From positions 1 through 62,355 of the forward strand of contig CAWGRV010000008.1 of NCBI GenBank assembly GCA_963825095.1: a DNA stretch of 62,355 nucleotides, in the 5' to 3' direction. The translations under genes and the position numbers were made by a program. The stretch is from an uncultured Nitrosopumilaceae archaeon. Its GTDB lineage: Archaea > Thermoproteota > Nitrososphaeria > Nitrososphaerales > Nitrosopumilaceae. The notes beneath the pieces are model-generated. The model did not search any database and was not told where the DNA came from. It was given only the letters and a program-made list of their open reading frames with translations. Positions 17,336 through 60,417 of this stretch are shown piece by piece. Every line of letters begins with the position of its first letter. Within the stretch, counting starts at the first letter, position 1.

Positions 17336-17447
17336 CGCCCAGTATGCATGCGTGGAATTATTAATAAAAGAATGAAGGCGCTTAGACAGTGCATTGAGAT
17401 ATGAACATTGTATGCAAACCAATGCTCGGAACCATCGCCGCCGAGCA

Positions 17448-25856: not shown

Positions 25857-27044
25857 ATGTTGTCTATAAATGCCGATTATTTTTTATACTTATTTTTGAT
25901 AATAACGATAGGGGTTAGCGGTTTCCTGGTCAAACGTTTGTATACCATTTTATTTTTACCCTATGAAATAAATGAACCAAAAATTGAAATTGAAATTGCC
26001 AGATCAAAAAATCCATTTTCGAGGAAATTCGGGAAATTACCTCCGCCATTCCCGAATTCCTGGTTCAGGATAGCATTCTCGAAAGAGATTCCAGTTGGGA
26101 CTGTAAAAAAAGTCGATGTCCTTGGACACCAATTGGCCATTTTCCGGGGCGAAAATGAAAGAGTATGTGCCTTGGATGCTTACTGTCCTCATTTAGGTGC
26201 CAATTTGGGTGATGGTACGGTTACGGGAAATTGTATACAATGTCCTTTTCATGGGTGGGAATTCAATGGTTCAGATGGAAAATGCATGCGCATACCTTAT
26301 AATGAGAATGTACCTGATTTTGCACGTGCCAAGACATATACTGTCCTAGAATCAAATAATATGATATTGCTTTGGCATGATGCTGAAAATAGAGATATTC
26401 AATGGTATCCACCTTTTGAAATTAAAGCCGATGATATTTCAAACGGCGAATTTCTATTTCACGGATCATCGGAACATTTTATCACCTGCCATATTCAAGA
26501 CATACCCGAGAATGGACCAGATCGAGCCCATTTAAATTTTCTGCATAAAAAACTAATTTTAGAATGGATTCCAATGGCAGAACATAAATGGGATGCAACC
26601 TGGCAACCTGGAAACGAGAAAGGAAAAGATGAACATTTAGCCTATATAAATTTGACACAAGAAATGGTGATCGCCGGATTTAGAATTCCTGGTACTTTTA
26701 TTTCTGTTAAAATCATTCAAATTGGACCTGGACTTGTTCAACTAATTTTCAATACATTTCTTGGAAGAATAGTGGTAATAGAAAGTGTTACACCAATAGA
26801 ACCGTTATTACAAAAGGCGGGTCATGTCGTATTCGCAGAAAAGAAAGTGCCACGCTTCATCGCCAAATTTGTTCTCTGGGGTCTATTAAAACAATTCGAG
26901 AGAGATGTACCCATATGGAATAAAAAAACTTTTATCTCTCAACCACTTGTAGTTAAAAACGATGGACCGTTATTAGTTTATCGTCGCTGGATGGCCAAAT
27001 TCTATTCAGAAAATTCTTTTAGGATAGAAGCGAAGGATTGGTGA
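25857..27044 (+). CDS. Rieske [2Fe-2S] non-heme iron oxygenase, Neverland/DAF-36 (cholesterol 7-desaturase)-like or KshA-like
   Basis: N-terminal TM segment. Rieske motif CPHLGANLGDGTVTGNCIQCPFHGWEF (CxH-x17-CxxH). Mononuclear-iron motif DIPENGPDRAHLNFLH (D-x3-D-x2-H-x4-H). Confidence 0.8.
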   Translation: MLSINADYFLYLFLIITIGVSGFLVKRLYTILFLPYEINEPKIEIEIARSKNPFSRKFGKLPPPFPNSWFRIAFSKEIPVGTVKKVDVLGHQLAIFRGENERVCALDAYCPHLGANLGDGTVTGNCIQCPFHGWEFNGSDGKCMRIPYNENVPDFARAKTYTVLESNNMILLWHDAENRDIQWYPPFEIKADDISNGEFLFHGSSEHFITCHIQDIPENGPDRAHLNFLHKKLILEWIPMAEHKWDATWQPGNEKGKDEHLAYINLTQEMVIAGFRIPGTFISVKIIQIGPGLVQLIFNTFLGRIVVIESVTPIEPLLQKAGHVVFAEKKVPRFIAKFVLWGLLKQFERDVPIWNKKTFISQPLVVKNDGPLLVYRRWMAKFYSENSFRIEAKDW

Positions 27045-33219: not shown

Positions 33220-34706
33220 ATGCAGTCTATTTATTGCCTATTTTTTCTTGCATTCGTTTTGGTTTCTTATGCCTCCAAAAAGCCAAACATAATTTTCATT
33301 CTCACCGATGACCAAGATTACATGTTGGCTGGTTGGAATGATAAAAGTTACGAACTGATCGGAAAAAAAGGTATTGAATTTTATAGTTATTACGCACATT
33401 CACCGATATGCTGTGTTTCAAGAAGTGCCATCTTAACAGGGAGATACATGCATAATATCCGAGAAACTTCATTTCCAGGAATTTGTTCTGAAAATCGTGA
33501 TTGCGGCTGCATGTATATAAATACTGATTCAGACTTCGAAATGCATAACATTGCTGTTTACATGCAAGATCTTGGTTACGCGACAGGTTATTTTGGCAAA
33601 TATTTAAATAGTGAGGCACTCACTCCCTATTGTTCCACCAAAGGACAAAACAATACCGCAGCACCTTCGTGGGATCACTTCAGTATACAATGCGATATCA
33701 CTTATTTCAATGATACTTGGAGTGTAAATGGGAAAGTGTCCAAGTTTCCGGACTACACGATCGCAAAAATAGGAAATGATAGCGTAAAATGGTTAAATAA
33801 CATTTTGTCTAATCCGAATCACAAACCGGTTTTCGCGATCCTTGCACCACATGCCCCACACGCACCGTACACGCCGGCTCCGTGGTATGTCAATGCTACT
33901 ATTCCTGGTAGCAATCCGGTCTTACCGTCCTACAATTATTCAGCCATGGATCACCCAGAATTCATTGCTGATATTCCTCCCCTGAATCAAGTTTTGGAAA
34001 CAGAGTTAGAATTCATTTTTAAGCAGAGAGCAAGAACAATTTTGTCAGTCGATGATGTTACAACGGCGGTTTTAGATGTACTTAAAGAGTATGAAGAACT
34101 AGATAATACTTATATATTTTTTTCTTCAGATAACGGATATCATTTGGGTGAGTTTCGTTTGAATGCGGCAAAAACCCATCCTTACGAATTTGATATAAGA
34201 GTACCATTTGGGGTTAGAGGACCAAATATCATACCCGAGACGAAAGGATTTCTCCAATCTCGGGGATAGATTTAGCTCCAACTTGGCTTGAATTGGCTGG
34301 ACGAAAAGAAAAGCCCCGATTTATGGATGGAATATCTTTTGCGTCCTTATTAACTAACAATACTAGTAATTTTACTCAAAATGTAATCTTGATCGAATAT
34401 TACTCCATTAATAATGGGAGCAAAAATCTGTGGGATAATGGTAATCAGGCTTCAAATAACACACATAGATCCATAAGAATCATAGATCCAATCATGGGAA
34501 ATTTGTCTTACATGGAATACGCCGAAGTATCCGATTGGTCCTTTAGTGATATAATATTCTATGAACTATATGACTTAGCTGAAGATCCCTATCAGTTAAA
34601 CAATTTATACTCTACGATTTCGCCGAAAATGAAAACATTCTTGCATGATTCTCTGTTGAGGCTATGGAATTGCGGTGACGCGTATACTTGGAATAAAACT
34701 TCTTGA
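33220..34706 (+). pseudogene. sulfatase (N-acetylglucosamine-6-sulfatase-like) interrupted by a 1-bp frameshift
   Basis: ORF 33220..34269 (signal peptide, IIFILTDDQDY, SPICCVSRSAILTGRYMHN) and ORF 34293..34706 together align along the intact paralog 52440..54149. Comparison with the paralog (KVFVPISGVDLAPTWIELAGG) shows that a single missing C in the run ctcc[c]aatc near 34255 restores ...GFLPISGIDLAPTWLELAGRKEKPRFMDG.... Confidence 0.7.
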
Positions 34707-35063: not shown

Positions 35064-35819
35064 ATGAGTCAAATTGAAGAGCAAAAAAACGAAAATCCTC
35101 AAGATGTAAGTCATGAGACCTACCGAGAATACGAAATTCCTGATCCAGAACCTATGGAAAATTGGTCTGACAATTTTCTGAGAAAGTTTCCGCTGTGGCT
35201 TGATACAATAAACGATGAGTCATGGTGGAAATGTTATTTTCCGGATATTCCCTATAAGCAGACTGATCTAGTCAAGAAATGGATTTTCAATTGTCTTGAA
35301 ATGACAGTCTCACCAGTTAAAATCTTCGTTCCAAGAGTGGCAAAAGATGAATGGGCAATACCAATTCCCTGGGCCATCATTGTACATATGTATGTTTTAC
35401 CGTTGAATGTTTCGGGAAATACTCCAATATTTATCAGAATCAGAGAGAATCCAGATTCGAGAAAACTCAAAGAGTACTTAAATTCATTTTGGAACAATTA
35501 TCAGAAGGGATATATATGCCATATCAACTTCTTCGGGAAAAAATGTGCCGAAAACATGCAAAAAATATCGCCTAGGGACCAAATCGAATGCGAAATCCTA
35601 AGGTTTAATGATGTGATCCGACCAGTTCAAATAAATCCTGCAACGAAAGTCAATCAAAATTTGGAAGTATATACGTTCCAAGTCGAATTGTCTGGAAAAT
35701 TTAATGGAGAAACCGTTAAGTTATTTTCTTCTTCTCTGAATGAACACACGGAAGAAGCCAGGAAACTTATGGTGTCGATTGGAATCTGTTACAACGATTT
35801 GTACGATGATTCAAAATAA
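35064..35819 (+). CDS. hypothetical protein
   Basis: 251-aa intact ORF. Confidence 0.45.
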   Translation: MSQIEEQKNENPQDVSHETYREYEIPDPEPMENWSDNFLRKFPLWLDTINDESWWKCYFPDIPYKQTDLVKKWIFNCLEMTVSPVKIFVPRVAKDEWAIPIPWAIIVHMYVLPLNVSGNTPIFIRIRENPDSRKLKEYLNSFWNNYQKGYICHINFFGKKCAENMQKISPRDQIECEILRFNDVIRPVQINPATKVNQNLEVYTFQVELSGKFNGETVKLFSSSLNEHTEEARKLMVSIGICYNDLYDDSK

Positions 35820-35963
35820 GAACTCTTCCGAGTACTATTTAATAAATGAAAAAATTTATAACTACTTGTTTGAGTGGTATTTCAGCCACGCGAATGCCTT
35901 TTTGACGATATTGACATCGCGTTTTGAAAACTTTTGTCTATATGTTTTTCCTTGTGTTTCACT

Positions 35964-36156
35964 ATCGCTCGGCAAAAGCTTTGCTTTCGCCCGCGTAAAG
36001 CGAGGTAAGCAGTTGCTGCTTGACGAACTTTGTTCGCTTATCAAGATGTTAGTTTCTTTACCAAGCAGCACCGTCGGTGATCTCGCTCTGTTCGGCAGCT
36101 ACGCTGCATTTCAGGATTTTATTTGACCAGCATTGTGCTCGGCGAACATAATTCGC
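35964..36156. repeat. GC-rich palindromic repeat element with solo IS-end-like motif
   Basis: cgctcggcaaaagctttgctttcgcc (compare gctcagcaaaagctttgcttttgc elsewhere), ...accagcattgtgctcggcgaacataattcgccg at 36126-36156. The motif accagcattg|tgctSRgcg is the same junction seen at the IS copy 1 right end (18944-18962). Confidence 0.5.
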
Positions 36157-36220: not shown

Positions 36221-37984
36221 ATGAGTGGCTCGAAGGAGTTATGTAAGAAAAATGATTTTAAAAATGAGGAAATTAAAGATGAAATAGAAGTTGTGCCATT
36301 ACAAACATACGAAACAGACGAATCAAGTAAAAAAGAAAAAAGATCTAAGGAACATAAACATCATAAGAAACATAAAAGTCATAAGCAATCCAAAAGCTCG
36401 AGGGAAGGAAAAAATTTGATTGGGCCAACAGGCCATACTGGTCCTACTGGACCAACAGGTCCTACTGGACCAACAGGTCCTACTGGACCAACAGGTCCTA
36501 CTGGTCTGGGAATTACTGGCCCAACAGGTTCTACAGGTTCCAATGGTCTGGGAATTACTGGTCCAACTGGAGTTCCTGGTCCAACTGGATCCATCGGGCC
36601 GGGCGCGAGCACTGTAGAAACAATTGCAGATTTAAGATTAACACAACCTTCATCAAACGTCGATTCAGTCACAGTTGAAGGTTATTATAACATCGGTGAT
36701 TTAGGCGGCGGGGAATTTGTTTATAATCCAAACGATACTACAAGCGCTGATAATGGAGGCACTATTATTGTGGCGAATGGTTTGTATCGTTGGTATCGGT
36801 TGAGTGATGGTGTTGTGACCGTGAAGCAATTTGGGGCCCAGGGCAATGGGATAAATGACGACACAACCGCCATTCAAAATGCTATAAATTTTGGTTCTGG
36901 CACGATTTATGTACCAAAAGGTAACTATTTAATAAGCCAATCAATTGTTTTCAATAATCCCGTAAACATAATCGGTGATGTACCAACAAGTTTTTTAAAT
37001 TCAGGAATGACGCCAACTAGTCCATATGCCTCTTGCCTAAAACTTGCGAACAACGCAAACTGCCCAATGTTTCTAATTAATACTTCTGAATCTCCGTATG
37101 GTGGTATTATTCAAAATCTAGAATTTAATGGCAATGATGCAAATCAAACTGGTGGCACAAATGTTTATGGCCTTTATTTTGCAAATGGCACCAGTGGTAC
37201 TATCGGCAGTCAATGGAAGATAGAAAAATGCTATATACATAATATTTATGATCACGGAATATTGATTGATACAGATCATATAGGGGTGAAACTCTTATAT
37301 GTTCAAGTATTTCGTGTGGGTACCGGCAGTTTAAGTGGATCTGGAATAGTTGCAAATGGAAGTAATGCAACGTTTTTCAATTGTAATATCGGGGAATGTT
37401 GGTACAATGGATTCTTGCTCCAAACCGGAAATAGTAACCTTTCCCAATGTAGTATATTTAGTTCTGGACGGTCATTTACTGGAACTGTCGGAACAGCAGC
37501 CGGTCGTGCCATTAATGTAGCTTCGAATGGTTCAAATAATATGATAATTGGTTGTACAATATCAGGAAATTATGGTGGTGGAATTTATCTGGACGGAGAC
37601 TACAACACTATTACGGGATGTTTATTTGCTGGAAATAACGGTGCTGAATTAACAGGTGTTCATGGATCTGATATTTATGTTGCCGATACTTCCGGTACGC
37701 AAACGATAGCAGCAAATGTGTTTGCTCAGCCTTCAGCGAACTATACAAGTCAATATGGCGTTCAATTCGCATCAAACGCAGCGGCCAGAATGAATAGCAA
37801 TACATTCGATAATACTAATTTTACGGTCTCTTTTACAAATCAAACGGCTTATATATTAGACGCCACGACTTCGGTGGCTGCAAGTACAGGATCAGCTATT
37901 TTACCATCAAATCCAGTTGGTTTTATAGAGGTGAATTTAAACGGCACCGGTACCTTATATAAAATACCGTATTACAATGTGTGA
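36221..37984 (+). CDS. collagen-like protein with pectate-lyase-fold (PF12708-like) right-handed beta-helix domain
   Basis: His/Lys-rich N-terminal leader ([16 protein letters not shown]). A G-P-T-G tandem array sits at about 36418-36600, built from 18-bp units. Then comes ...[31 protein letters not shown]...[39 protein letters not shown], typical of pectate-lyase-superfamily, tailspike or depolymerase N-termini. Parallel beta-helix repeats follow. Confidence 0.8.
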
Positions 37985-38050
37985 AAACGACAAAAATAGA
38001 AAATCAAAACTTGATTGTTATGCGATAATTAGAAACTATGTTCAAAATCC

Positions 38051-40089
38051 ATGAAATATTTCGCTTATATAAATATAATCAAAATGGATGAATCAGAGGA
38101 ATCCCAGAGAAATGATTTCAAAAATGATCAAATCGAAAATGAAATAGAAATTACGCCGTTGCAAATATACCGTAAATATGAGGTGAATAAAAAAGAAAAG
38201 GGATCCAAAAAACACAAACATCATAAAATGTGCAAAAGTGAGAAAAAATCCGGAGACTCGAGAAAAAAAAAATATTTAATTGGGCCAACTGGTCCTAGCG
38301 GCCCAACAGGCCACATTGGTCCAACCGGTCCAACTGGTAAAAACGGTCTGGGAATTACTGGCGCGACTGGATCGATCGGACCAACCGGTACAGAGTTAAC
38401 CTTGCCGAATATAGCATCCCTCAGGGCAACTGCTCCTAATTCGAGTTTGGAATCACTTGTTGTCGAAGGATATTACATTCCCGGGGATGGAGGTGGTGGT
38501 ACATTTTTTTATGATTCTACTGATGTAATAACCCCGGATAACGGGGGAACAGTAATCGTCGCATCTGGCTCATCTGACCCAACTGCAAGATGGAAAAGAA
38601 TTTATGTTCCGAGAAACATATCAGCAAAATGGTTTGGTGCAAAAGGAGACGGAGCCACAGATGACACCATCGCTTTGACAAATTGTTTAGATCTGGCTCA
38701 GAACCTGAATGGAGCCTCCATATATCTGCCTTCTGGAATTTATGTTATTTCGGAGACATTGAATGTAACAGTTTCGAATGTAAGCATTAAAGGTGATGGG
38801 CATCCCGTATGGACAGACGTCAATCCAGATCAAGACTATACTTGTATCAGTTGGAATGGGGCGAGCGGAGCAGCGATGCTTTCAGTATCGGCAATAGAAG
38901 GGCCGAGTAATGATGTTATAAGCTGCGTCGATGTAATCGGAGTGGGATTCTTGGGCAATGGAACAGCTGCCTACGGAATTGCAATTGGCTCGCAATGGTA
39001 TGGTAAATATGATGTTTATATAGAAAATTGTACGATAGCCCTCTTTTATACTTATTGCCTCGCCCAATTAGCCAAACATTGTGATGTACAAATGTTGGAT
39101 GTTTTATTAAATGGTAAACAGATTAGTGGAACAGGTGCGGGATTATTGTTGACCGGGAATGCTGAAAGTTTGCCGGCAGGCTCGGACACTTCGCTTTGTA
39201 TTTTCAGGCATGTGAGTGTGTTAATCGGCGAAAATAATACCGGAGTGATTTTAGGTAACACCGATCACAATTTATTTTTAATTCTAGCGACGCCACCAAA
39301 GACAGCCACAACCGGTCCAAGTGTTGTCTTTCAAGCGGCTGCAACGGGCCAAGAACCGGCGCGTTACAATCTCATAATTGAATTGGCTAGCGGAAAGGGA
39401 CAAGTAGTAGCTCAGGGAACGGAAACACAAGTCAATCCCTCTAATGGAAATATTATTCAATATATCAACTTCGTAGGAGCCGCATTGCCCTCTATTGGCA
39501 CCGGGGCCGACTTAGCTTGGGGTTCAGATAATAATATTTTCGGTCCGCGCGGATTTTTCGGAGTAGCGATTGCGGATCAATTCGGCACTGCGAGAACGGC
39601 TTACGATGCATTAACTACTGAATCTTTGAGAGTGGCTAATGGAATGAGTAACCATATTATCTTATCGAATCCGCCAAATACCGTAAATTGGAGTGTGAAT
39701 ATAGAAAATTCCAATGGTGAAATGAGAATGTACAGTACAACTAACCCAACTGAACCATTAGTCGTGAGTAATCCAATGGCCGCGGCATCACCAGTCGTTT
39801 TCGCGTCATCCGCTGATCTTTCTCATGAAATATCAGCCGCCGGTACTGAAACATTACGCCTAAATAATTCATCTAGTAATCATTTATTGTTGACAGCTAA
39901 TACGCACGATGCGGATCAATGGGGAATGAATATCGACGGATCAGGAAATTTAAATTTCACTCATCCGGCCGGGACGGGTACTGGAAGTTTTACCGGGGAT
40001 ATGACATTTAACAATCAATTAACAGTTACTGATAATTTCAATCCGCAGAGTAAAACCATATTTGGTGCCACTGCAAGTCCAGCACCGCA
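38051..40089 (+). pseudogene. collagen-like/beta-helix fibre protein, 5' part, disrupted by IS4-family insertion
   Basis: Same architecture as 36221..37984: K/H-rich leader, GPTG repeats, LRATAPNSSLESLVVEGYYIPGDGGGGTFFY...AKWFGAKGDGATDDTIAL. The native frame runs into the IS at 40090. The annotated ORF end (40165, ...HNASNLSKFIHIFFDNFNILMEMIS) is IS-encoded read-through. Confidence 0.75.
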
Positions 40090-41595
40090 CAATGCTAGTA
40101 ACTTAAGTAAATTTATTCATATTTTTTTTGATAATTTTAACATTTTAATGGAAATGATTTCCTAAAATTTCATTTTTATAAATTTCAGAAAATTTCGCAC
40201 GAATTCTAAATTATTCATTTGGTCGGCTGTTGTACTTTCTTTCTGCAAAACATGAATACCTCCGGTAATCCGGCTGCCCATAAATTGATCATCTTATTAC
40301 ATTTTTATAAAAATGATAATGCATACCAATTTATGGGAAAATAAAGATTATTTTTTTTCCACAGTGCAATACATGCGACCCTTACTACCCCATTTTGACC
40401 CCTTTGGTTTTTTCCTAATTCTCTTATGATGTCTGTTTTTTTGTATCAATGTAACGGTATCTTCTATTATTGATAATATTCTTAGGATTTTATTTATTCC
40501 CGTTTTGCGAGTATTGCCATAAAATAATGCATATAAGAGCTTCTTTACAAATTTCAGACTATTCTTCCTGTTTATTTTATATTTATCGCAATTTATATTT
40601 TTCATAGCAATGTTTTCGAAAAAGCTATCAATAATAAAAATGAAATTATGTATAGCTATATCCTGTTTAACTTTTCCAATTTCTTTTGATTCAATATCTT
40701 TCAAAGATAAATCATATTTAGCGTGTCTAAAATTTGTTTCGATTTTCCATCGTTTCCAATATAAATCCATTAAAAAATTCATATCTTTATCTATCAATGT
40801 TGTTCCCAAAAAATAATCATTTCCATTAAGTTGGTATTTAATTAGTTTCAACTTTATTAATGTTCCATCTATATTAATGTTTATTATTTTCTCCGAACAG
40901 TTACCATTTAGATGTTTTTTTACAATTGTTAGCGTTGAAACTAATCGAAATACAACATTTATGCCCTTTCCAATAAGTGTTCTAAATAATTCCTTACTAA
41001 AATAACCTCTATCCATTAATAAAACATCGCCAGGTCGAATATATTTTAATTGTCTTTTCAATATGAATCTTTCATCGGAAGAATCACTAATGGTATAATT
41101 GATGACCATTTCTTTATCAACATCATATAAACAACTTAACAAAGCGGTACAGTAATTTTGATTTTTGTCCAATTTAAATCCATTTTCACTAAGGGTCGCA
41201 TTTAAGTTAATACCACTACCATCAACGGCAATATATCTTTTTTTATTATCTGCATATATAAAATCAAGAAGTGATTGATTAAATATTTCAAAATGGGAAT
41301 GATCAATATTAGATCGTTTATTAATAATGGCCGTTTTAGTTACATTCAAAACATTCTTATATTTTAAAGACGAATTAACGATATCATAACTTAATTTCTC
41401 ATTATTCTTACGGGAGAGAATATACACGATATCCTTAAAAGAAACCTTTCTCTTCCGTATCGAAGTGTAAAAATTCAAATCAGATAAAACTCGATTAATA
41501 TAAATTTTAAAATTTTTAATGATTTTTATAGGGTCCATTAAAAATAATATATATAAAAAAATTAAAATTATAAAAAACTTAAGTTACCAGCATTG
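40090..41595 (-). mobile_element. IS4-family insertion sequence, copy 2, with 9-bp target-site duplication AGCACCGCA
   Basis: TIRs at 40090-40107 and 41578-41595. The direct repeat agcaccgca lies at 40081-40089 and 41596-41604. It is inserted inside the collagen/beta-helix gene. Confidence 0.85.
40348..41538 (-). CDS. IS4-family DDE transposase (copy 2)
   Basis: 396 aa, differing from copy 1 at 3 residues (F33S, I-to-L, T-to-S); same YREK signature. Confidence 0.85.
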   Translation of the reverse strand: MDPIKIIKNFKIYINRVLSDLNFYTSIRKRKVSFKDIVYILSRKNNEKLSYDIVNSSLKYKNVLNVTKTAIINKRSNIDHSHFEIFNQSLLDFIYADNKKRYIAVDGSGINLNATLSENGFKLDKNQNYCTALLSCLYDVDKEMVINYTISDSSDERFILKRQLKYIRPGDVLLMDRGYFSKELFRTLIGKGINVVFRLVSTLTIVKKHLNGNCSEKIININIDGTLIKLKLIKYQLNGNDYFLGTTLIDKDMNFLMDLYWKRWKIETNFRHAKYDLSLKDIESKEIGKVKQDIAIHNFIFIIDSFFENIAMKNINCDKYKINRKNSLKFVKKLLYALFYGNTRKTGINKILRILSIIEDTVTLIQKNRHHKRIRKKPKGSKWGSKGRMYCTVEKK

Positions 41596-42258: not shown

Positions 42259-43599
42259 TTAAGACGGAGTATAGGAGAGACTCGCGCTAAATGAAAGTTG
42301 AGTAATATCAGCGGCAGCTGCATCCGACGACGCATTCGCAGGTCTTATTCTGATACCAATTCGATCTCCGACACTAACCACTAATGGTCCGACGCTGAAG
42401 TTAGTAGCAGCGTAAAAAGTACCGGCAACAATACCGGGACCAGCAAATGTGACTGAACAATTCAATGGGGTAGTAACATATGACGATGCGACATGATTCG
42501 TCCCATCATTCGGGCTGGATGGTGCGCGAAAAACGGTAAATATATACGTCAACGGATTTGTATTAATGAAAGCGACAGATGCAACAAGTAAATCTACGCT
42601 GACCTGAAGGTTCTGCACGGTACCATTGAACGGTATCGGAAACGCAAATCCGGCAGCTTGTGGCGGCATTGTCGATTCACCACTGCCATTAATAGTTTCG
42701 ACTGTATTATTACCAAAACCCATTAGAATTGGAGCGGCTTGAACAACTGTTGCCCCGCTAATAATAATTCCAGTTGAAAAAGGGATTATTCCTGCCGAGC
42801 CGGCGATCCCCTGCGGTCCCGTCGGGCCAATTAATCCCTGTAAGCCCTGTATTCCTTGAATGCCTTGTGGTCCGGCAATACCTTGCGGACCAGTTGGCCC
42901 AATAGGTCCTTGCGGACCAACTGGACCGGCAGGACCAACGGAACCTGTACCGCCTGTACCCCCACCCGCAGCACCAGTCGGACCCAGAGGGCCTGCAACG
43001 CCCTGAATACCCTGGATACCCTGAATGCCTTGAGTGCCGGTAGGACCAATGGGTCCCTGGAGACCGGTAACACCCTGCAAACCTTGAATTCCTTGGATGC
43101 CCTGTATCCCCGGTATTCCCGGTATTCCTATCGGACCGGTGGGACCGGTGATTCCGGAAGAACCCGCGCCAGTCGGGCCAGTTGGACCAGTTGGACCAGT
43201 CGGGCCAGTTGGGCCAGTTGGACCGATAAATCCATTCAAACCTTGTTTACCTCTTCTGCCTCTTTTTCCCCTACTACCCTTCTTGCCCCTTTCACCCCGG
43301 GTACATTTTTCAGAATGATGCTTTTTATGATGAACTTTTTTGCTACAAGATTCTTTTGAATGATGCTCCTTACCATGGGATCTTTTGCTGCTCGCTTTTT
43401 TAGAATGATGGTCCTTACTGTGAGATTTTGTGCTACAGGATTCTTTTGAATGATGCTGTTGCCTGTGAGATTTTTTCCGGTAGCTACTTTTTTTTTTTAA
43501 TCCATCACGATGCCCATATTTTTTGCCTAGGCGATCAATGGCCTTTAGCCCGAAAAACCGTTTCACTTGACGACGATCTTTGTCATTTCTTTTTTTCAT
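42259..43599 (-). CDS. collagen-like protein with His-rich N-terminal leader and C-terminal globular domain
   Basis: The leader has repeated HHSKESCS/KKxHH units. About 200 residues of G-x-y (GPTGPTG..., GIQGIQG...) follow. The C-terminal roughly 150-aa domain is possibly C1q/BclA-like, by inference only. Confidence 0.75.
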
Positions 43600-43812
43600 A
43601 GATATAATTTTAATAGAGAAATTAGAAAAATTATTACTATAGATAATTTGGTAAATATATCCCGTTTATGATATTTAGCCAAATTATTTGCTGTCGAAGA
43701 ACATTTTGAGGTTATTCATTCACGCTGTGTGTGATTACCAAAACGTCAAAAGACTTAGAATTTAATTCTTTTGATTGCTAAAAAAAACATAATTCAGACG
43801 GATATGTACAGA

Positions 43813-46311
<2,499 letters not shown>

Positions 46312-46638
46312 TTATGTGTTTTTTTATGACTCTTTGAGTGTCGGCGTTTTCCACTACCGAAAGATTTTATTTTGGACTTTTTATGTGACGTTTCTATTTT
46401 TTTCAGAAGTCTCTTTTTTTTAGCACTTTTTTTACCCATGATTGTATAACATTTCTTGCTATATTTTTTTGCCAACAGCAAGATATTATTTTACTTGTTA
46501 AATGATGATTATTGGTTATACCAACTGAAATAATATAATTTTCTAAAAATGACAAGATTTTATTTTTATTATTTGCTTAACCGGTAAATAATAAATTTAA
46601 TAATACAAAATAAATTTCTTGGTTGGTTATTTCACAAC

Positions 46639-47967
46639 TTAAAATTTATAGACGTAAGTTGTTCCATTATTAAAGGTGGTCGGGGTCGGAACATCAAAAT
46701 AGGGCAAATAGTAGGCAAAATTTGTATTTTCACCAATTACGAGTCTTCTTTCGGACGAAGATAAGGCAGCCCCGAAGAAATCCAGCTGATGGGGATTTGG
46801 ATTCAATAGCGTGGTTAGGTATGTCCATTGATTGTGGCAAAGTTTATAAATCTCGACGCTTCCAACGTGTTTCATTGTCCCATCCAATGAACTGTTATTA
46901 TTTGTAATGAAGATATATTCTTCGTGTAGAACCAAGTTCGTTCCAAATGCTCCTTGAAGAGCTGGAACTTGCGGATAAATCTTTGTAACAAATTGCCAAT
47001 TTCTGACACCATTATTCTCATAGGCACTGTAAATATATACTGCACCGGCCAAGAAAACGGCTTGTGGATTTGTACTGTCGAGCGGAGCGCCAATTATAGC
47101 CCAATCCTTATTGAATTCGATCCTGAATCCGAACAAATCACCAATACCCTCCGGGCTGGGCGGCGGAGGGCTATTTCCCCTTAATAATTCGACAAATTCC
47201 CATTGACCGCTATAATCATTTAATTTATAGAAATAGGCGTAACCATTATCTGGCGGGTTGGACCCAAATTGTGTGTAATTACCTTCGGCCGTGATGAAGG
47301 CATACTTACCGCGAACGAAGCAAGCACCACCAATTGCCTGATTGAAAATCGGACCAGTGGGACTCGTAATTTTTTGGGTTAATGTCCAAAGGCTACCTAT
47401 TAAGCGGAAGACGTAAACGTTCCCAGCCAAGGGAACCCCTTCTATTTGATTCTGAGGAGCCCCGATAAAGGCCCACTCATCATTGAAATCCATATATTGA
47501 CCACCAAATTCGATTCCATAAGTTACGCTGTCGTAAACATAAGTAGGGGGATCGTTGGGTAGCAAAGTTTGTTTTAAATTCCATTGTCCGTTGCAAAGAT
47601 AAAAGACTAAAACAGCACCACCAGGATGCGGGTCGGGGCCCGGACCTCCAGATACTTTAGAGCCAAAAGAGCACATCGCCCATTTGTCGTCGATTTTGAG
47701 CGAATTGAATGCCCCAGGGACATCGCTAGACAATAGCTCTGAAAAAGGAGCTTGTGATTCAATAAATTGATCATGATGCTCATTGTAAAAGATTAGAGCA
47801 CCGGCATTGGAGACTGAATCAACCGTGGCATTTTGGGCCGTAATGGCAAGATTATGCGAATCTACAGATACGGCTGCCCCAAAACCATCTCCCAAAGTGG
47901 TATCGCCAACAACACTTCCCGGTAAAGGTGAAGCCATCGTTTGAATTAGTGTAAATTGTTCAGACAT
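46639..47967 (-). CDS. FG-GAP repeat (integrin-alpha-like beta-propeller) protein
   Basis: Repeated FG-x(n)-D-x-IGAP-x(n)-G-x-VY motifs (FGGQYMDFNDEWAFIGAPQN...GNVYVF, FGFRIEFNKDWAIIGAPLDS...GAVYIYS). Paralog of 48162..49511. Confidence 0.6.
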   Translation of the reverse strand: MSEQFTLIQTMASPLPGSVVGDTTLGDGFGAAVSVDSHNLAITAQNATVDSVSNAGALIFYNEHHDQFIESQAPFSELLSSDVPGAFNSLKIDDKWAMCSFGSKVSGGPGPDPHPGGAVLVFYLCNGQWNLKQTLLPNDPPTYVYDSVTYGIEFGGQYMDFNDEWAFIGAPQNQIEGVPLAGNVYVFRLIGSLWTLTQKITSPTGPIFNQAIGGACFVRGKYAFITAEGNYTQFGSNPPDNGYAYFYKLNDYSGQWEFVELLRGNSPPPPSPEGIGDLFGFRIEFNKDWAIIGAPLDSTNPQAVFLAGAVYIYSAYENNGVRNWQFVTKIYPQVPALQGAFGTNLVLHEEYIFITNNNSSLDGTMKHVGSVEIYKLCHNQWTYLTTLLNPNPHQLDFFGAALSSSERRLVIGENTNFAYYLPYFDVPTPTTFNNGTTYVYKF

Positions 47968-48020
47968 TACTATAGTAGTAAATAAGATTTTTATTCAATT
48001 TGTGGATGTGAAATTTCAAT

Positions 48021-48146
48021 AATATTGCGTATTATCTCGCTTCGCTCGACTCATTACATTCGTTTTCTCGGAGAGCAAGTGAACAGAGTTCACTGAGCCT
48101 ACGGCTCAGCAAAAGCTTTGCTTTTGCGCAATGCTTAGCATTGCCG
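48021..48146. repeat. GC-rich palindromic repeat element (reverse orientation) between the FG-GAP paralogs
   Basis: Reverse complement of the 19822-19930 and 56700-56780 modules (gagtcgagcgaagcgagataatacgcaatatt; ctcagtgaactctgttcacttgctc; gctcagcaaaagctttgcttttgc). It ends with the mini-palindrome caatgcttagcattg at 48120-48134. Confidence 0.65.
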
Positions 48147-48161
48147 AACATGTTGACTTAT

Positions 48162-49511
48162 TTAATATTTGTAAACATAGGTGTTTCCATTATTAAAAGT
48201 AGTCGGTACGGGCACGTCAGTATACGGCAGATAATAAGAGAAATTGGGATTCTCACCAATTACAAGTCTATTCTGGGACGCAGATAAGTCTCCGCCGAAG
48301 AAATCTAATTGATGAGGATTAGGGTTTAATATGGTGGTAAGATAGGTCCATTGGCCATTGCAAAGCTTATAAACTTCAACGGATCCGACATGTTTCATGG
48401 TACCATCTGATGAACTGTTGTTATTTGTAATGAAGATATAGTCTTCGTATAGAACCAAATTTGTTCCAAATGCTCCTTGAACGGCTGGATTTTGAGGATA
48501 CAGCTTTGTGACAAATTGCCAATTAGTGACTCCTTTATTATTATACGCACTGTAAATATACACTGCACCGGCGATAAAAACACCTTGCGGGTTTGTATTG
48601 TCGAGTGGGGCTCCGATAACGGCCCAATTGTTATTAAATTCAATTCTGAATCCAAATAAATCACCAATGCCATTTGGGCTGGGCGGCAGAGGACTGTTTC
48701 CTCTCAATAGTTCGACGAATTCCCACTGATTTGTGTGTTGGTTTAATTGATAGAAGTAAGCATAACCGTTATCGGGAGGATTAGAACCGAATTGTGTATA
48801 GTTACCTTCCGCGGTAATAAAGGCATAATTACCATTTATATAAGAAGCCCCTCCGATAGATTGATTGAAAATCGGCCCAGTTGGACTTGTGATCTTTTGG
48901 GTTAATTGCCATTTTTCGTTCTCCAGATGAAAAACGGATACATTTCCAGCCAAGGGTACACCGTCTATCTGATTTTGTGGAGCGCCTATAAAAGCCCAAT
49001 CACCATCAAAATCCAAATATTGACCTCCGAATTCAATTCCGTAAGTGAAATTATTATAAACATAAGTGGGAGGATCACTTGGTAATAGAGTTTGAACCAA
49101 ATTCCACTGATTACCTTCGAGTTTAAAAACCAGTACGCAACCGCCCGGATGTGCAGCGGGGCCGGGACCTCCAGAGACTTTTGCACCAAATCCTCCCATC
49201 GCCAGACATCCTTGAATTTTAAGGGCGTTAAATGCGCCCGGGACATCGCTAGTAAGTAATTCTGAGAATGGCGGCTGAGACTGTGAAAACTGATTGTGCT
49301 TCTGAGTGTAGAAGAGTAAAGCCCCAGTATTGGAAATAGAATCAACAGTGGCATTCTGAGCAGAGACAACTAACTGATCACCGTCTATGGAGACAGCGGA
49401 GCCGAAACCGTCGCCCAAGGTTGTGGTACCCACAACGCTACCCGGCAAAGGAGAACTAAGAGTTTGAAGGAGTACGAATTGTTCAGACATTTCTATAATG
49501 TTAGGGAACAA
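48162..49511 (-). CDS. FG-GAP repeat (integrin-alpha-like beta-propeller) protein
   Basis: 449 aa, about 75% identical to 46639..47967. Confidence 0.6.
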   Translation of the reverse strand: MFPNIIEMSEQFVLLQTLSSPLPGSVVGTTTLGDGFGSAVSIDGDQLVVSAQNATVDSISNTGALLFYTQKHNQFSQSQPPFSELLTSDVPGAFNALKIQGCLAMGGFGAKVSGGPGPAAHPGGCVLVFKLEGNQWNLVQTLLPSDPPTYVYNNFTYGIEFGGQYLDFDGDWAFIGAPQNQIDGVPLAGNVSVFHLENEKWQLTQKITSPTGPIFNQSIGGASYINGNYAFITAEGNYTQFGSNPPDNGYAYFYQLNQHTNQWEFVELLRGNSPLPPSPNGIGDLFGFRIEFNNNWAVIGAPLDNTNPQGVFIAGAVYIYSAYNNKGVTNWQFVTKLYPQNPAVQGAFGTNLVLYEDYIFITNNNSSSDGTMKHVGSVEVYKLCNGQWTYLTTILNPNPHQLDFFGGDLSASQNRLVIGENPNFSYYLPYTDVPVPTTFNNGNTYVYKY

Positions 49512-50283: not shown

Positions 50284-50343
50284 TTGAAATATAAGTTTTA
50301 TTTATTCACTTATTTGAAATAATATGAAATTAAAAAAAATCAA

Positions 50344-50489
50344 TTTTCAGATTATTATCGCAATCCTCAATCCTATTTTGAATCTTTCTCGTAAACTCGC
50401 AAGATTAAAAATTGAATTTTCAGATTATTATCTTAATCCTCAATCCTATTTTGAATCTTTCTCGTAAACTCGCAAGATTAAAAATTGAA
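50344..50489. repeat. 73-bp perfect-ish tandem duplication (2 units), each carrying AAAATTGA
   Basis: Units are 50344-50416 and 50417-50489: ttttcagattattatc[g/t][c/t]aatcctcaatcctattttgaatctttctcgtaaactcgcaagattaaaaattgaa. They lie immediately upstream of the small ORF 50538..50723. Confidence 0.8.
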
Positions 50490-52439: not shown

Positions 52440-54149
52440 TTGTTAATTTTTTTATCCCCAATGCGCAGGTTATCTATTCTAGAAAACCTAGCAATTATTT
52501 CTATCGTAATCGTTTCCATCGTTGCCAAAAAACCAAACATTATTTTTATCATAACCGATGATCAAGATTACATGCTCGCCGGATGGAATGATCAGAGTTA
52601 TAAATTGATAGGAGATCAAGGTATGGAATTTTATGGCTACTATACTCATTCACCCATTTGTTGTATATCGAGAAGTGCCATCTTAACAGGAAGATATATG
52701 CACAATATTCGAGAATCTTCTTTTCCGGGAATTTGTGACGACAATGCCACAGATTGTGGCTGCATGTACATAAATACCGACGCGGCTTTTGAACAACATA
52801 GTGTGGCCATGAATATGCAAGAATTAGGCTACACAACCGGTTACTTCGGAAAATACCTTAATACCCAAGCATTGGTACCATATTGTTTTAGTGGTTCAAG
52901 TAATAGGATTGCGCCGGGATGGGATCAATTTAATATACAATGCTATCAAACTTATTTCAACGACACGTGGAGTATAAATGGAAACGTGTCAATGTTCCCA
53001 GATTACACTATTTCAAAAATAGGAAATGATAGTATAGCTTGGTTAGCATCAATACTATCCCAATCTGATCATAAGCCCATTTTCACAATGTTGGGTCCGC
53101 GTGCGCCGCATCCACCCTACACTCCAGCTCCATGGTATGCTAATGCAAATATATCGGCTCAAAATCCAACTTTCCCATCTTTTGATTACGCAGCAACGGA
53201 TCATCCACCTTTCATAGCGAATATTCCGGCCTTGACTTCAAAATGGACAGAAGAATTGGCTTTTGATTTCGTACAAAGAGCAAGAACCATGTTATCGGTT
53301 CATGATCTGACATTAGCAATTTTAAATATTCTGGAACATTATCAGGAAATAAATAATACGTATCTTTTTTTCGGTTCGGACAACGGTTTCCACTTAGGCG
53401 AATTTAGATTATCGGATGACAAAACACACCCGTATGAATTCGATGTGCGAGTACCCTTTAGTATTCGAGGTCCCAATATTCAATCTGGAACCAAAGTATT
53501 TGTGCCGATTTCGGGAGTTGATTTAGCTCCAACATGGATTGAATTAGCAGGAGGCCAACAAAAACCAGCGTACATGGATGGGAGATCTTTTGCTTCATTA
53601 TTAACTAACAGTTCAAGTAATTTCAAGCAGAATGTCGTTTTGATAGAATATTATTCTACAAATAATGGGAGTACCGATCCGTGGAAAAATGGTAATGATG
53701 ATACAAATAACACTCATAGATCTATCAGGATAATAGATCCAGTTATAGGGAATCTATCCTATATAGAATACGCCCAGGTTTTTGATTGGTATTTTAGCAA
53801 TATTATATTTTATGAGTTATACGATCTGATTAAAGATCCCTATCAGCTAGATAATATTTATTCTAAACAGTCTTCGGACATGAAAGATTGGTTGCATATA
53901 TCACTTTTAAATTTATGGACTTGCGGTCCTGCATATGTCTGGAATGAGACTTCGATGTGTCCAGAATTATCTTATCTCAAGCCACCAACATTTACAATAA
54001 ATAAAGCATCAAACTTTTCTTACTTTAATATGATTCTATGTTTCGACTTATTTCTATTGCTGTTAACTGTCATTATAATCTTTAATTTCATGAGAATATA
54101 CAACATGATTTGGATCTCGAAGCAAGAAATTTATCGACAAAAATTATAG
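52440..54149 (+). CDS. sulfatase (N-acetylglucosamine-6-sulfatase-like) with signal peptide and C-terminal TM anchor
   Basis: 569 aa. IIFIITDDQDY, SPICCISRSAILTGRYMHN (sulfatase signature region, with Ile in place of the canonical Pro), GPRAPHPPYTPAPWY. C-terminal hydrophobic segment FNMILCFDLFLLLLTVIIIFNFM. Intact paralog of the frameshifted 33220..34706. Confidence 0.8.
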   Translation: MLIFLSPMRRLSILENLAIISIVIVSIVAKKPNIIFIITDDQDYMLAGWNDQSYKLIGDQGMEFYGYYTHSPICCISRSAILTGRYMHNIRESSFPGICDDNATDCGCMYINTDAAFEQHSVAMNMQELGYTTGYFGKYLNTQALVPYCFSGSSNRIAPGWDQFNIQCYQTYFNDTWSINGNVSMFPDYTISKIGNDSIAWLASILSQSDHKPIFTMLGPRAPHPPYTPAPWYANANISAQNPTFPSFDYAATDHPPFIANIPALTSKWTEELAFDFVQRARTMLSVHDLTLAILNILEHYQEINNTYLFFGSDNGFHLGEFRLSDDKTHPYEFDVRVPFSIRGPNIQSGTKVFVPISGVDLAPTWIELAGGQQKPAYMDGRSFASLLTNSSSNFKQNVVLIEYYSTNNGSTDPWKNGNDDTNNTHRSIRIIDPVIGNLSYIEYAQVFDWYFSNIIFYELYDLIKDPYQLDNIYSKQSSDMKDWLHISLLNLWTCGPAYVWNETSMCPELSYLKPPTFTINKASNFSYFNMILCFDLFLLLLTVIIIFNFMRIYNMIWISKQEIYRQKL

Positions 54150-56782: not shown

Positions 56783-56790
56783 AAAATTGA
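56783..56790 (+). promoter_or_regulatory. AAAATTGA octamer upstream of 56844
   Basis: Exact octamer 54 bp upstream of the ATG at 56844, directly after the GC-rich repeat. Confidence 0.4.
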
Positions 56791-56843: not shown

Positions 56844-58665
56844 ATGGGGCCCTTTGTAGTTTTCTTTTTAATATTCACCACGGTAGCGACATCCTCTCAA
56901 TGGATCAAGATAGAAAATTACAATATTAAAAAAACAAATGATGGTTCGAAATGTTCTATTATTGTTCGTGAATCAGAATTGATTGGAAGAAACAACATTT
57001 GCTCGTCGAAAATTACTTTTCACATCGCCCTTAAGCAAAATGAAATTGGTGTTCGACAATTGGAAAATTATATTTTGAATTCTGCGAGCAACATTGACTC
57101 GGAATATTATGGTCAATATTTATCAATTAGCGCCATCAGTGATTTAGTATCGCCCCCAAAGAGAGAAGCTGATTTGGTACTTCAGTGGCTTAATAAGAAT
57201 AACATTTTCGATTGCCAGAATTTCGGTGATTCCATAAAATGTTCAGGGAGAAATCAAAGATGTGGAACTTTTATTCGAAAATCAGGTTAATTTATACCTG
57301 AATGTTAATAAAAAAATATTAATCTATAAATCTGATCAAAATTACGTATTCCCGAAGCATTTGGAAAACATTATAGAATTCGTTGATGGCATTTCGAATC
57401 CTTTAATAGATTTTCCCGTCAAAAATTAAATGTCAAATCCACTTCTGAACCTGACCCCGGCGCCTTCACGAGAGAAGTCATGCAAAGGCTTTATAATATG
57501 ACAGATACTTATGTCTATGTGAACTCGAGTGTTGGAGCGATGGAATTTATGGGCCCCGAAGGATTTTCCAACAGAGATTTATCAAAAAGTCAACAGGCAA
57601 ATGGAATAACCATAAACAAAATTCGGAATATTATAGGTTACAATAATCCATTTCCTGATACTGAAAGTGAATTAGATGTGCAAGTGATGTGTTGGGCGGC
57701 GACGAATGCGAGTTTGTGGTACGATCATGAAAATGGTTGGATATATGCTTGGGCCATTAGTACGTTTAACAGAGAAACAATTCCGGAGGTACTTTCTTAG
57801 TTGGGGCTGGGATGAAACGCAACAGTGTAGCCTTTTTAATTGTTCAGGAAATATTAATAATACAATGTCATATGTAAAAAGATGCGATGTCGAATTATTA
57901 AAAATCACCGCACGGGGAAGTACAATTTTAGTTGCTTCAGGAGATGCTGGTTCTCCGGATAGAACTAATGAAATGTGTTAAATAAGAAAAAGGTCCATAT
58001 GGGTGGACTGCCATGAATCCTATATTTCCGGGAGATTCCCGTATGTCCTGAGCGTCGGAGCAACTTATATAGTTGAAGGAAGAAGCATCATCGTTCAATT
58101 ACTCGACGCCAATTTGTACTCATGTTTTTGGTTGTGCGAACGGAACCCAGGAAAATGGCGTTGAATATGACGTTGTAAACTGGACGACAGGTGGAGGTTT
58201 CGCGCATTGGAATGAAAGGCCAACATGGCAAGAGAAACAAGTTAATATTTATTTAGAATCAGGAATAGCATTACCGAATTGCACGTATTTCAATGCGTCC
58301 AATAGAGCATATCCTGATGTTTCAGCAGTTGGACACAATTGCGCGATTTATGAATTAGGTTGGGAATTTGTCGATGGTACATCGTGTTCAACTCCCGTTT
58401 TTGCAGGTATTATCACTAATTTGAATAGTTTCCAGAAACAAAGAGGAAAACCGATATTGGGGTTTGCCAATCCTTTATTGTATAAATGTATCTAGAAAGT
58501 CCCAATACATTTAATGATGTGACGCTAGGAACTACAGCCTGCACAGAATTCAAATGTTGTGGACAAGATTTTGGTTTTTTGGCGAATCAAGCATGGGATC
58601 CGGTTGGCGGTTTAGGCACACCGAATGTAGAGAATATGAAGAATTATTTGGTCCAAAATACCTAA
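56844..58665 (+). pseudogene. sedolisin / tripeptidyl-peptidase (S53) family gene broken into 5 or more pieces
   Basis: The pro-domain piece is 56844..57290: signal peptide, ...YYGQYLSISAISDLVSPPKREADLVLQWLNKNNIF. The catalytic pieces are: 57480..57800 (ESELDVQ); 57706..57981 (SWGWDETQQC...VASGDAGS); 58073..58495 (GGGFAHWNERPTWQ...PDVSAVG...DGTSCSTPVFAGI); and 58510..58665 (FNDVTLG...GFLANQAWDPVGGLGTPN). The pieces lie in frames 0, 0, 1, 2 and 1, with an in-frame stop between the first two. Confidence 0.65.
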
Positions 58666-58805
58666 ATTGAGACTTCGAATATTGCATATTCTGCATCCTA
58701 ATTCTTTATTTATTCACTCGGTTCATAAATAAAAAATTGAGACTTCGAATATTGCATATTCTGCATCCTAATTCTTTATTTATTCACTCGGTTCATAAAT
58801 AAAAA
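58666..58805. repeat. 70-bp tandem duplication (2 units)
   Basis: attgagacttcgaatattgcatattctgcatcctaattctttatttattcactcggttcataaataaaaa at 58666-58735 and again at 58736-58805, immediately after the sedolisin pseudogene stop. Confidence 0.8.
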
Positions 58806-58915
58806 AGAAATCAAAGAAAAAATCAGTCCAATTTGGATTCATCGAGAAACTCTTTCCACAGAATGAAAATATCCGGACTATTTAAAAAAATTGAAAATTT
58901 CTTTTAATGCCTTAG

Positions 58916-60417
58916 TTGATTAAGATAAAACGAACTAGTAATTTATTCACCATGTTGAGAAGCTCAACTCGAACATTTAGGAACAATTCTTATCAGAAAT
59001 CTTATACCTGTGTTAGTTTGAATAAAATCTCACGCCGGAATATGGTCGATTTTAGTTATGTACAAAATTTGGCAACTAATTATTATGCATCTTTGACTGT
59101 AGCCGCTGGTCTAGGATTATGTGCATTTGCAGCAACCCGCTATAAGGTGGCAGGCGCCGATAGTTACCTCGTGCGAACTGGTCTTGGTATTAAGGATATC
59201 AAAATCACTAAAAACAAGGTTTTCTTTGGCCTTTCCAAAAGTATAAGTTTATAAATATGCATCCAAAACCCTATTCATTCACTCTCCAATCAATGTCTTT
59301 AGAAAAAATCCAATTCAAATTGCCTGCTATATTTATCATAGGTCCAAAAAACGATATGGAAGCATTGACGAAATATGTTCGAACAGTAGAGGCATTAGAG
59401 AGTGACAAAACAATTGATTCGATTATCTTAGGAATTTTAGAGGGCGAAACGAGATTGCATTCTTCAACGATGAGTATCGAAGAGATTTTTAACAATAGAC
59501 AAGCCTTCAAAGATAAGCTTTTAAAAAATATCCAACAGGAGCTGGACGAAATAGGATTATTAGCATTTTCACCAAATCTCAAGGATTTAGATGATGATCC
59601 GCATAGTGATTCAAAGTATTTCTATAATATGAGACAAAAGACTCTGTCTTATGCGGAAAATCAAGCTAGAATAGATATTGCCGAAAATAAAAAGAAAGGA
59701 GAAATTGGAGAGAAAGAAAGAACATCCTTAATCCGGCAACAAGTGGCCCAATATGAATCAGAAACGGTTCAAAAGGAAAATGAGCGATTCCAAGAAATAG
59801 AAAAATCCAAAGCAGCCCTCGAAGTAGTTCGAGCAGAAGCATACAGGTTACAAGAAATAGCGAAAATAGAGTCAGCAAATGCAACCCACAAAAGAGCTGC
59901 AGAATTAGAACAGGAGGTCGAACAAAAGAGAATCGCCACACAGACTGAAAGAACGAGGGTATCGGAAATGTCAAAAGCACAAGTTCAAGCAGAAGTAATA
60001 ATGAAAGAAACCGAAGGACAGGCAAATGCCCTCAGAATGAAGTCGGACGCAGAATTATATGCAGCCCAGCAACACGCCAAAGGTATTTATGCCCTTTATG
60101 AAGCCCAAGCGAATGGAGTTAATAAACTGATTGAATCTTTCGGAAGTAATTCAGAAACATTACTTAAATATTTAATGATGGAAAAAGGAATACTTGAAAA
60201 ATTACTCGCGACAAGCGCAGATGCTATCCGAGGTCTCAATCCAAAGATCACAATTTGGAATACTTCTTCCGATTCTAAAAATAATACAAATTATACGGAC
60301 GTCATAAGAGATATTTTCAAAACTATTCCAATTTCCACTCAAATAATTCAAGATCAAACCGGAATCAAAATTGCCGATAATATAATCAAAGTGCCTAGTG
60401 AAGAATCCAGAAATTGA
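58916..60417 (+). pseudogene. flotillin-like SPFH/band-7 protein with one frameshift near 59225-59255
   Basis: ORF 59257..60417 aligns by eye with flotillin. ...ALTKYVRTVEALESDKTIDSIILGILEGETRLHSSTMSIEEIFNNRQAF matches [34 protein letters not shown]. It also has Glu/Ala/Gln-rich flotillin repeats and a C-terminal ...KITIWNTSSD... segment. The N-terminal hydrophobic hairpin part (ORF 58916..59254, ...TNYYASLTVAAGLGLCAFAATRYKVAGADSYLVRTG...) is in another frame. Confidence 0.65.

Follow-up and report, generated by a model that had tools for sequence, protein, structure and literature searches.

How should a flotillin gene that is spread over two reading frames of a virus-like contig be understood: as a membrane scaffold that is still made, as a gene recently lost, or as an error in the assembled sequence? 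The question is posed by positions 58,916 to 60,417 of contig CAWGRV010000008.1 (assembly GCA_963825095.1). The window analyzed here is the whole contig, 62,355 nucleotides (nt) in length, and all coordinates are forward-strand positions of this window. Two open reading frames (ORFs) lie one behind the other at the locus. The first-pass annotation, made from the letters alone, had taken them for the parts of a flotillin-like SPFH protein in a viral-type genome, separated by a frameshift that would mark either a recent pseudogene or a sequencing indel; the coordinates and the differing frames of both ORFs are confirmed, and these two alternatives are judged to be the right ones to weigh. The locus is almost certainly a viral flotillin-family gene. 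On balance, it is best read as an early-promoter-driven, flotillin-family SPFH scaffold gene of a Mimiviridae-type contig that has been truly and recently inactivated, a statement that is probable rather than secure when taken as a whole. The elements of the gene, all on the + strand, are as follows.

58887-58894, +, AAAATTGA motif, Mimiviridae early-promoter-like, 58 nt upstream of the ATG at 58952
58916-59254, +, upstream ORF: TTG start, 112 amino acids (aa), start coordinate modulo 3 = 2
58952-59214, +, 5' part of the flotillin gene in the upstream frame: leader, transmembrane helix, first SPFH strands
59210-59214, +, A5 homopolymer run in which the frame breaks; reading on requires a -1 shift; one Lys codon in relatives
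59215-60417, +, 3' part of the flotillin gene, coding for the remaining SPFH domain, the helix of about 174 residues and the C-terminal helices; TGA stop at 60415-60417
59252-59254, +, premature TAA in the upstream frame, ending translation from ATG 58952 after 100 aa
59257-60417, +, downstream ORF: ATG start, 386 aa, start coordinate modulo 3 = 1

One flotillin-family gene in two frames

The large downstream ORF alone matches the Pfam Band_7 profile from position 45 to 175 (46.3 bits, E 6.6e-12). When the upstream frame is added, the match extends from position 5 or 6 to position 175 of 176 (E 4.4e-16 / 2.7e-16), and the alignment of relatives spans 96-100% of the joined protein, upstream part included. 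The upstream ORF thus supplies the 5' end that the downstream ORF lacks, in one and the same SPFH gene, and the two ORFs belong merged as one frameshifted flotillin gene or pseudogene, whose joined product has 487 aa.

The kinship of the joined protein is revealed by profile, sequence and fold alike. Band_7 (PF01145) scores 60.5 bits against a gathering cut-off of 23.6, with profile positions 5-175 covered at E 2.7e-16. Among all PDB sequences, human flotillin-1 is the sole match (E 1.4e-11, residues 153-474 against 94-416). A family profile built from 57 sequences, the joined window protein and 56 relatives, ranks flotillin-1 (1.1e-14) and flotillin-2 (3e-13) first, with the flotillin-1/2 entries ranging from 1e-14 to 4e-13 and stomatin following at 1.7e-3. 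An AlphaFold2 (AF2) model of the joined protein has a mean predicted local distance difference test (pLDDT) score of 78.9, rising above 90 in the SPFH domain: residues 1-35 are disordered or of low pLDDT, a helix spans residues 36-63, SPFH strands and helices occupy 64-209, one continuous helix of about 174 residues, rich in Glu, Ala, Lys and Gln, runs from 222 to 395, and further helices follow at 400-427 and 448-469. The four top PDB structures found with this model by Foldseek are chains of the flotillin complexes 9l3g and 9bq2, aligned over 431-446 columns; prohibitin, stomatin, vault, HflK/C and erlin rank lower. These results agree with the earlier description of ORF 59257-60417 as a flotillin-like SPFH protein, and its reported SPFH C-terminal part, Glu/Ala-rich repeats and C-terminal tail reappear as an SPFH domain, a long helix and a C-terminal segment.

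The profile search suggested at that stage gave a divided answer, since Band_7 matched (E 2.7e-16) and the Pfam Flot model of the flotillin C-terminus (PF15975) found nothing in the joined protein at E <=1, a weaker point of the assignment. PF15975 is matched by 18 of the 57 aligned sequences (best E 3.7e-6), which makes the viral family borderline for this model, one probably built mainly on animal and bacterial sequences. The NCBIfam equivalog for bacterial FloT, NF058507, gives 33.3 bits against a cut-off of 700, and by this measure the window protein is related to FloT, yet not a FloT member. That the protein is a generic coiled coil with no true SPFH or flotillin kinship, as its silence against PF15975 and its low FloT score might hint, is refuted by the Band_7 match, by the ranking of flotillin-1/2 as the top PDB matches in sequence, family-profile and Foldseek comparisons, and by the relatives that do reach PF15975, so that the outcome named beforehand as fatal to the flotillin assignment has next to no chance of being correct.

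The site of the frame break can be located closely. Three-frame translation of the downstream frame reads QGFLWPFQKYKFINM from 59215, within KQGFLWPFQKYKFINMHPKPYSF; the family-like sequence thus begins 14 codons before the ATG at 59257 and agrees with the family consensus over the region, KQGFQWPFQxYxFIxMxPxNYxF. In all 29 relatives listed, exactly one residue, K, stands between [S/T] and the Q/K/T that precedes G, and the segment is free of gaps. The DNA across the break is ATC ACT AAAAA CAA GGT TTT, in which a -1 shift restores the frame. Because homology in the downstream frame already starts at 59215, the break lies within the A5 run at 59210-59214; the frameshift reported by the first-pass annotation is present in the sequence, and its placement near 59225-59255 is too far downstream. 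The break falls at codon 88, and the stop comes 13 codons further on. The simplest history, to judge from the relatives' single Lys codon, would be growth of an A3 run to A5 (+2 A); an extra Lys codon followed by the loss of one A is a possible alternative.

Neither ORF begins where the gene does. By comparison with its relatives, Met 59257 is an internal conserved residue and no start codon, and the remaining 400 codons after the break have no promoter or start of their own. The true start is most likely the ATG at 58952 (MLRSSTRTF…) rather than the TTG at 58916, because AAAATTGA lies 58 nt upstream of this ATG, a spacing like that of 15 other ORFs in the window.

By homology, the intact protein would be anchored in the membrane by its one N-terminal helix, with the SPFH domain laid on the membrane surface; by analogy to the human flotillin cage, the long 174-residue helix and the C-terminal segment would then assemble into an oligomeric ring or dome that encloses a membrane patch. 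In this genome, the promoter would yield a 100-residue stub with the leader, the membrane helix and two beta-strands. With nothing longer than this stub to be expected from the promoter, the genome most likely makes no functional scaffold.

Viral setting and cause of the frame break

The window is dense, AT-rich and without introns, and it looks Mimiviridae-type; its genes encode ankyrin, F-box, BTB and collagen-like proteins, a kinase, a P450, a Rieske protein, sulfatases and transposases. AAAATTGA, which we take to be the early-promoter motif described for Mimivirus and Mimiviridae, occurs 37 times (21.6 +/- 4.5 expected; none of 100 shuffles reaches 37), and for 16 copies the first ATG of an ORF of at least 100 aa follows at a distance of 43-70 nt, against about 1.6 expected given that 4.3% of positions are eligible. 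The earlier assignment to a viral-type genome is upheld by this enrichment and positioning together with the giant-virus-type gene content. The window represents an accessory-gene region without core genes, and for this reason its lineage rests on the promoter motif, the gene content and the best matches. Freshly captured host DNA was considered as a source and rejected: the flotillin and sedolisin genes both carry the viral promoter motif at standard spacing.

Other genes of the contig, one of them next to the flotillin gene, are in decay as well. The resolved cases, with the intact copy of the sulfatase, are:

56844-58662, +, TPP1/sedolisin (peptidase S53) pseudogene, directly upstream of the flotillin gene: seven pieces in three frames, 5 frameshifts, in-frame TAA at 57979-57981
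33220-34706, +, split sulfatase paralogue: ORFs of 349 and 137 aa, 1-nt deletion near 34253, 1-nt insertion near 34703
52440-54149, +, intact sulfatase paralogue: 569 aa, Pfam Sulfatase E 3e-30

The sedolisin pseudogene has its own AAAATTGA at 56783, 54 nt upstream of its ATG. Its lesions were mapped by Pfam profile coordinates and by human TPP1, a word-based search for relatives having returned short fragments only. The Pro-kuma_activ profile is split over two frames (positions 13-93 and 89-142) and matches the joined product at E 2.5e-19; against human TPP1 (3edy), the joined product reaches E 2.6e-48, and the regions of the catalytic motifs ESELDVQ and DGTSCSTP are still recognizable. One of the frameshifts occurs at a site without a homopolymer of at least 4 nt, and five shifts in 1.8 kb would arise under a uniform indel or error rate with P ~5e-6. 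The sulfatase paralogues are 68% identical in a global DNA alignment and 75-79% identical in their best ungapped blocks; neither indel of the split copy lies in a long homopolymer. This part of the genome sheds cell-derived accessory genes, in keeping with the view that giant-virus genomes evolve by gain and loss. Runs of short or overlapping same-strand ORFs at 9570-12470 (-) and 35064-36126 (+) could also be fragmented genes; Pfam gave no matches to them.

A real mutation is favored because the adjoining sedolisin gene is heavily decayed and because 35 kb of other ORFs show no homopolymer breaks. In the 28 intact ORFs that make up these 35 kb, all 283 homopolymers of at least 5 nt leave the frame unbroken, which bounds the chance of one or more such errors in the flotillin gene at about 10% or less. 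The inactivation would be a recent event, in an accessory region of the genome where neighboring genes decay as well.

A number of observations weigh against this reading. The intact-ORF argument is biased, because those ORFs were chosen for being intact. An assembly error would look just like this, a single lesion of one base type in a homopolymer, and over its 1.47 kb the flotillin gene shows no stop and no indel other than the shift. The collections searched held no reads and no second assembly of the same virus: IMG/VR scans with peptide patterns and with an exact 33-mer across the site came back empty, and the contig look-up had no record of the 386-aa product. Nor is there a clear sign of relaxed selection. 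At columns conserved in at least 85% of sequences, the window protein departs from the family at 16 of 107 (16-17 by count) and most close relatives at 0-7, yet the intact sister P0005 in a neighbor-joining (NJ) tree departs as often, at 18-19 columns, with six departures common to the two proteins. No core giant-virus gene (major capsid protein, family B polymerase, A32 ATPase and others) was found among the 30 largest ORFs and fragments scanned with Pfam, and because the window has no core marker gene, a free virus and an endogenous viral element are indistinguishable in it. Finally, cage-type oligomerization and membrane location of the viral flotillin are expected from homology only.

The rival explanation that survives best, a real possibility though short of the expected outcome, is that the virus carries an intact gene and that the apparent frameshift comes from an indel introduced into the A5 run by sequencing or assembly. 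The position of the break inside a homopolymer, the integrity of the rest of the gene (52-58% identity to relatives over the full length, with no other lesion), the normal distance between promoter motif and ATG, and conserved-site departures no more numerous than in P0005 are all as this explanation predicts. It has to contend with the 283 unbroken homopolymers and the upper bound derived from them, with multi-lesion pseudogenes that are real and lie next to the gene and elsewhere in the contig, and with the nature of the simplest change: an addition of two A residues is less typical of a consensus error than a gain or loss of one.

Alternatively, the contig could be a giant-virus-derived insertion decaying in a eukaryotic genome, the flotillin break being part of the general decay. 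Three broken genes in 62 kb (sedolisin, the first sulfatase and flotillin), the lack of core virion or replication genes among the largest ORFs scanned, and the origin of the closest cellular-labeled relative, an Amoeba proteus transcript with 47% identity, would fit such an insertion. It is nevertheless improbable: most genes, namely the 28 ORFs in 35 kb, are intact, tightly packed and equipped with viral promoter motifs, no host-like flanks or introns are visible in the window, which as the whole contig extends into no flanking DNA, and the near identity of two transposase copies suggests that the DNA was active recently and is no fossil.

Very little speaks for a break that is bypassed during expression, by -1 ribosomal frameshifting on U AAA AAC or by polymerase slippage, to give a short anchored peptide together with some full-length flotillin. 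The required shift is indeed -1, and AAA AAC is the 3' part of the classical slippery heptamer A AAA AAC, but the base before the run is U, which leaves the heptamer imperfect, the 85 nt downstream fold with a minimum free energy of -6.4 kcal/mol (z -0.04 against shuffles), and none of the aligned relatives is split, all having a plain K-Q at this place. An A5 run is shorter than those known to cause transcriptional slippage. Programmed frameshifting was rejected, there being no downstream structure beyond that of shuffled sequences and no shift in relatives.

Relatives, leader and possible membrane target

A large protein search (5.8-billion clusters) revealed 86 relatives, the nearest of which is 58% identical to the joined protein. 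The best relatives (52-58% identity, 460-600 aa) are intact single ORFs that align over their full length and reside on giant-virus contigs. Their contigs include ones of 156 kb, 911 kb, 205 kb (204,815 nt) and 277 kb. In three cases the gene context is a dense giant-virus array with BTB proteins, ribonucleotide reductase, thymidylate synthase with an intein-type insert, topoisomerase IA and RNA ligase, and the flotillin neighbors in these three contigs share nothing with the window. A rough NJ tree groups the window protein with P0002 and P0005.

The leader-bearing flotillin transcript P0031 from the Amoeba proteus transcriptome (EukProt EP01126), the closest cellular-labeled relative, nests among viral sequences in the same rough tree; it could be a host gene, an endogenized viral gene or a transcript of an infecting virus.

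The nearest named counterpart is the 'flotillin domain-containing protein' of Fadolivirus algeromassiliense (QKF94097.1 / YP_010803522.1, 487 aa), 52% identical over 99% of the joined protein (E 9.6e-143). This protein and giant-virus metagenomic relatives, with identities up to 56-58%, have the same layout as the window protein (a basic leader, one membrane helix, the SPFH domain, the long helix and the C-terminal segment) and a likewise giant-virus-type genomic setting. They differ in being single intact ORFs, whereas the window copy is split at codon 88, and in their gene neighbors, which are not common to the window. SPFH proteins in BFVD come from Catovirus, Tupanvirus, Pandoravirus, Fadolivirus, Harvfovirus, Bodo saltans virus, Mimivirus and many phages. 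Since Fadolivirus has an annotated flotillin and SPFH proteins are common in giant viruses, a virus-encoded flotillin is of a known kind, and the locus is a new, damaged member of an already annotated giant-virus flotillin family. Flotillin-type scaffolds are widespread in Mimiviridae-like viruses, yet no discussion of them was found in the literature collection searched, which returned no paper pairing flotillin with Mimiviridae, Klosneuvirus, Fadolivirus or the nucleocytoplasmic large DNA viruses, and only a Pandoravirus preprint mentions SPFH proteins. In that structure-annotation preprint, they are predicted to be mitochondrial (bioRxiv 10.1101/2023.12.02.569716).

Among solved structures, human flotillin-1/flotillin-2 (9bq2, 9l3g) is the best match both in sequence (E 1.4e-11, or 1.1e-14 with the family profile) and in fold (Foldseek E 1.8e-14 over 442 columns), covering the SPFH domain, the long helix and the C-terminal region at an identity of only about 20%. 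The viral family is set apart by a predicted transmembrane helix that follows 20-60 basic residues. Animal flotillins, which attach to membranes by acylation and hydrophobic stretches, have neither an N-terminal leader nor a spanning helix. Fungal and plant-type flotillin-like Band 7 proteins (e.g., Neoarthrinium moseri JX265_004981, P0077; 33% identity over 90%, E 5e-62) have the same SPFH start motif, ...YLAITGMGI...WPFQ, but lack both leader and membrane helix, their first residues already belonging to the SPFH domain. Mitochondrial SPFH scaffolds, prohibitin 1/2 and stomatin-like protein 2 (SLP-2), have the SPFH fold in common with the viral family (the prohibitin complex 8rrh is reached by Foldseek at up to E 3e-11) and, like it, place an N-terminal anchor before the SPFH domain; in sequence and fold the viral proteins are nearer to flotillin, and their helix of about 174 residues is much longer.

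The N-terminal region encoded by the upstream frame begins with a basic, acid-free leader of about residues 1-31 (estimates extend to 30-45) that ends in RRNM|VD; its first 20 residues contain four basic and zero acidic ones. A hydropathy scan predicts a transmembrane helix with its hydrophobic core at residues 46-62 (nt 59087-59137), within the AF2 helix 36-63, of which the Ala/Gly-rich, moderately hydrophobic segment ASLTVAAGLGLCAFAAT is a part. The first SPFH strands, RYKVAGADSYLVRTGLGIKDIKITK, come after it. The upstream ORF had been credited with the hydrophobic hairpin that anchors flotillin; it does supply a membrane segment, in the form of one predicted helix and not of a re-entrant or metazoan-type hairpin.

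The leader is a conserved trait. Acid-free basic N-termini are present in 42 relatives, 26 of which begin with ML. In 30 of the 42, R-x-[F/Y] occurs no more than 30 residues ahead of the membrane helix, against an average of 7.5 and a highest count of 15 in 500 trials with shuffled leaders. The frequency of acidic residues is 0.015 per residue ahead of this motif and 0.153 from the motif to the helix, a tenfold difference. The window copy has RRNM at the leader end, where most relatives have R-x-F/Y. An acid-free, basic, hydroxylated N-terminus with an R-3 processing site and a stop-transfer anchor is the textbook form of a cleavable mitochondrial presequence, and the combination of presequence and stop-transfer helix is found in SLP-2 and other inner-membrane proteins. 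Judged by its composition and motif, the leader of the viral flotillins suggests such a presequence; the alternative would be a type II signal anchor for the endoplasmic reticulum.

If the leader is taken at face value, the target membrane would probably be the mitochondrial inner membrane, where cells normally use prohibitin or SLP-2. A tentative proposal, held with more doubt than confidence, can then be made for the whole family: a presequence (ML[R/S/T]..., ending in R-x-F/Y) would direct the protein to host mitochondria, the Ala/Gly-rich stop-transfer helix would place it in the inner membrane, and a flotillin-type cage would form there, the window copy marking a lineage that has just lost this function. 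A role in virus entry or factory formation had been imagined at first; the leader suggests mitochondria instead. A second clade of about 15 relatives (P0050-P0068) on giant-virus-like contigs, which carry topoisomerase IA and RNA ligase, has no leader and no R-x-F/Y, only an N-terminal membrane helix (e.g., L004 10001-11344; GCA_013558435.1, JACCDI010091531.1). The existence of leader-bearing and leaderless clades suggests two different membrane destinations within one family. The conserved leader is the one interesting lead of the locus and, if the mitochondrial target is confirmed, would give a concrete starting point for understanding how host mitochondria or membranes are manipulated by giant viruses.

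Other features of the window

A duplication lies in the spacer that separates the sedolisin pseudogene from the promoter of the flotillin gene:

58664-58803, +, perfect 70-bp tandem duplication, two copies, 100% identical

Each copy holds an AT-rich palindrome, TTTATTTAT(N11)ATAAATAAA, that may be a 3'-end hairpin signal, and the junction of the copies creates an extra AAAATTGA at 58733. A second tandem duplication, at 50334-50479 (+), is 73 bp long and 95% identical, and its copies begin with promoter-like sequence of the AAAAATTGA / AAAAAATCAATT type.

Two IS4-like copies at 17445-18896 and 40087-41538 (-) each encode a 396-aa DDE_Tnp_1 transposase (E 1.6e-15). No difference separates the copies over the first 472 nt compared, and an insertion sequence (IS) of bacterial type has apparently been active recently in this giant-virus-type contig. 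Short GC-rich repeats at 18961-19925 and 48018-48127 (74-132 nt, 81-92% identical, direct and inverted, with palindromes such as GTGAACGGAGTTCAC) resemble miniature mobile elements; they adjoin one IS copy and recur 28 kb away.

A cytochrome P450 at 20080-21723 (+; E 1e-34) and a Rieske/KshA-type oxygenase at 25857-27044 (+; Rieske E 9e-24, KshA_C E 2e-20), about 4 kb apart, may form a sterol- or steroid-modifying pair. The block formed by 36221-40165 (+) and 42259-49511 (-) has a GC content of 39-44%, against about 30% elsewhere, and encodes collagen-repeat and pectate-lyase/beta-helix proteins as well as two FG-GAP paralogues. Long overlapping alternative-frame ORFs near 45875-46481 arise from GGN/CCN repeats.

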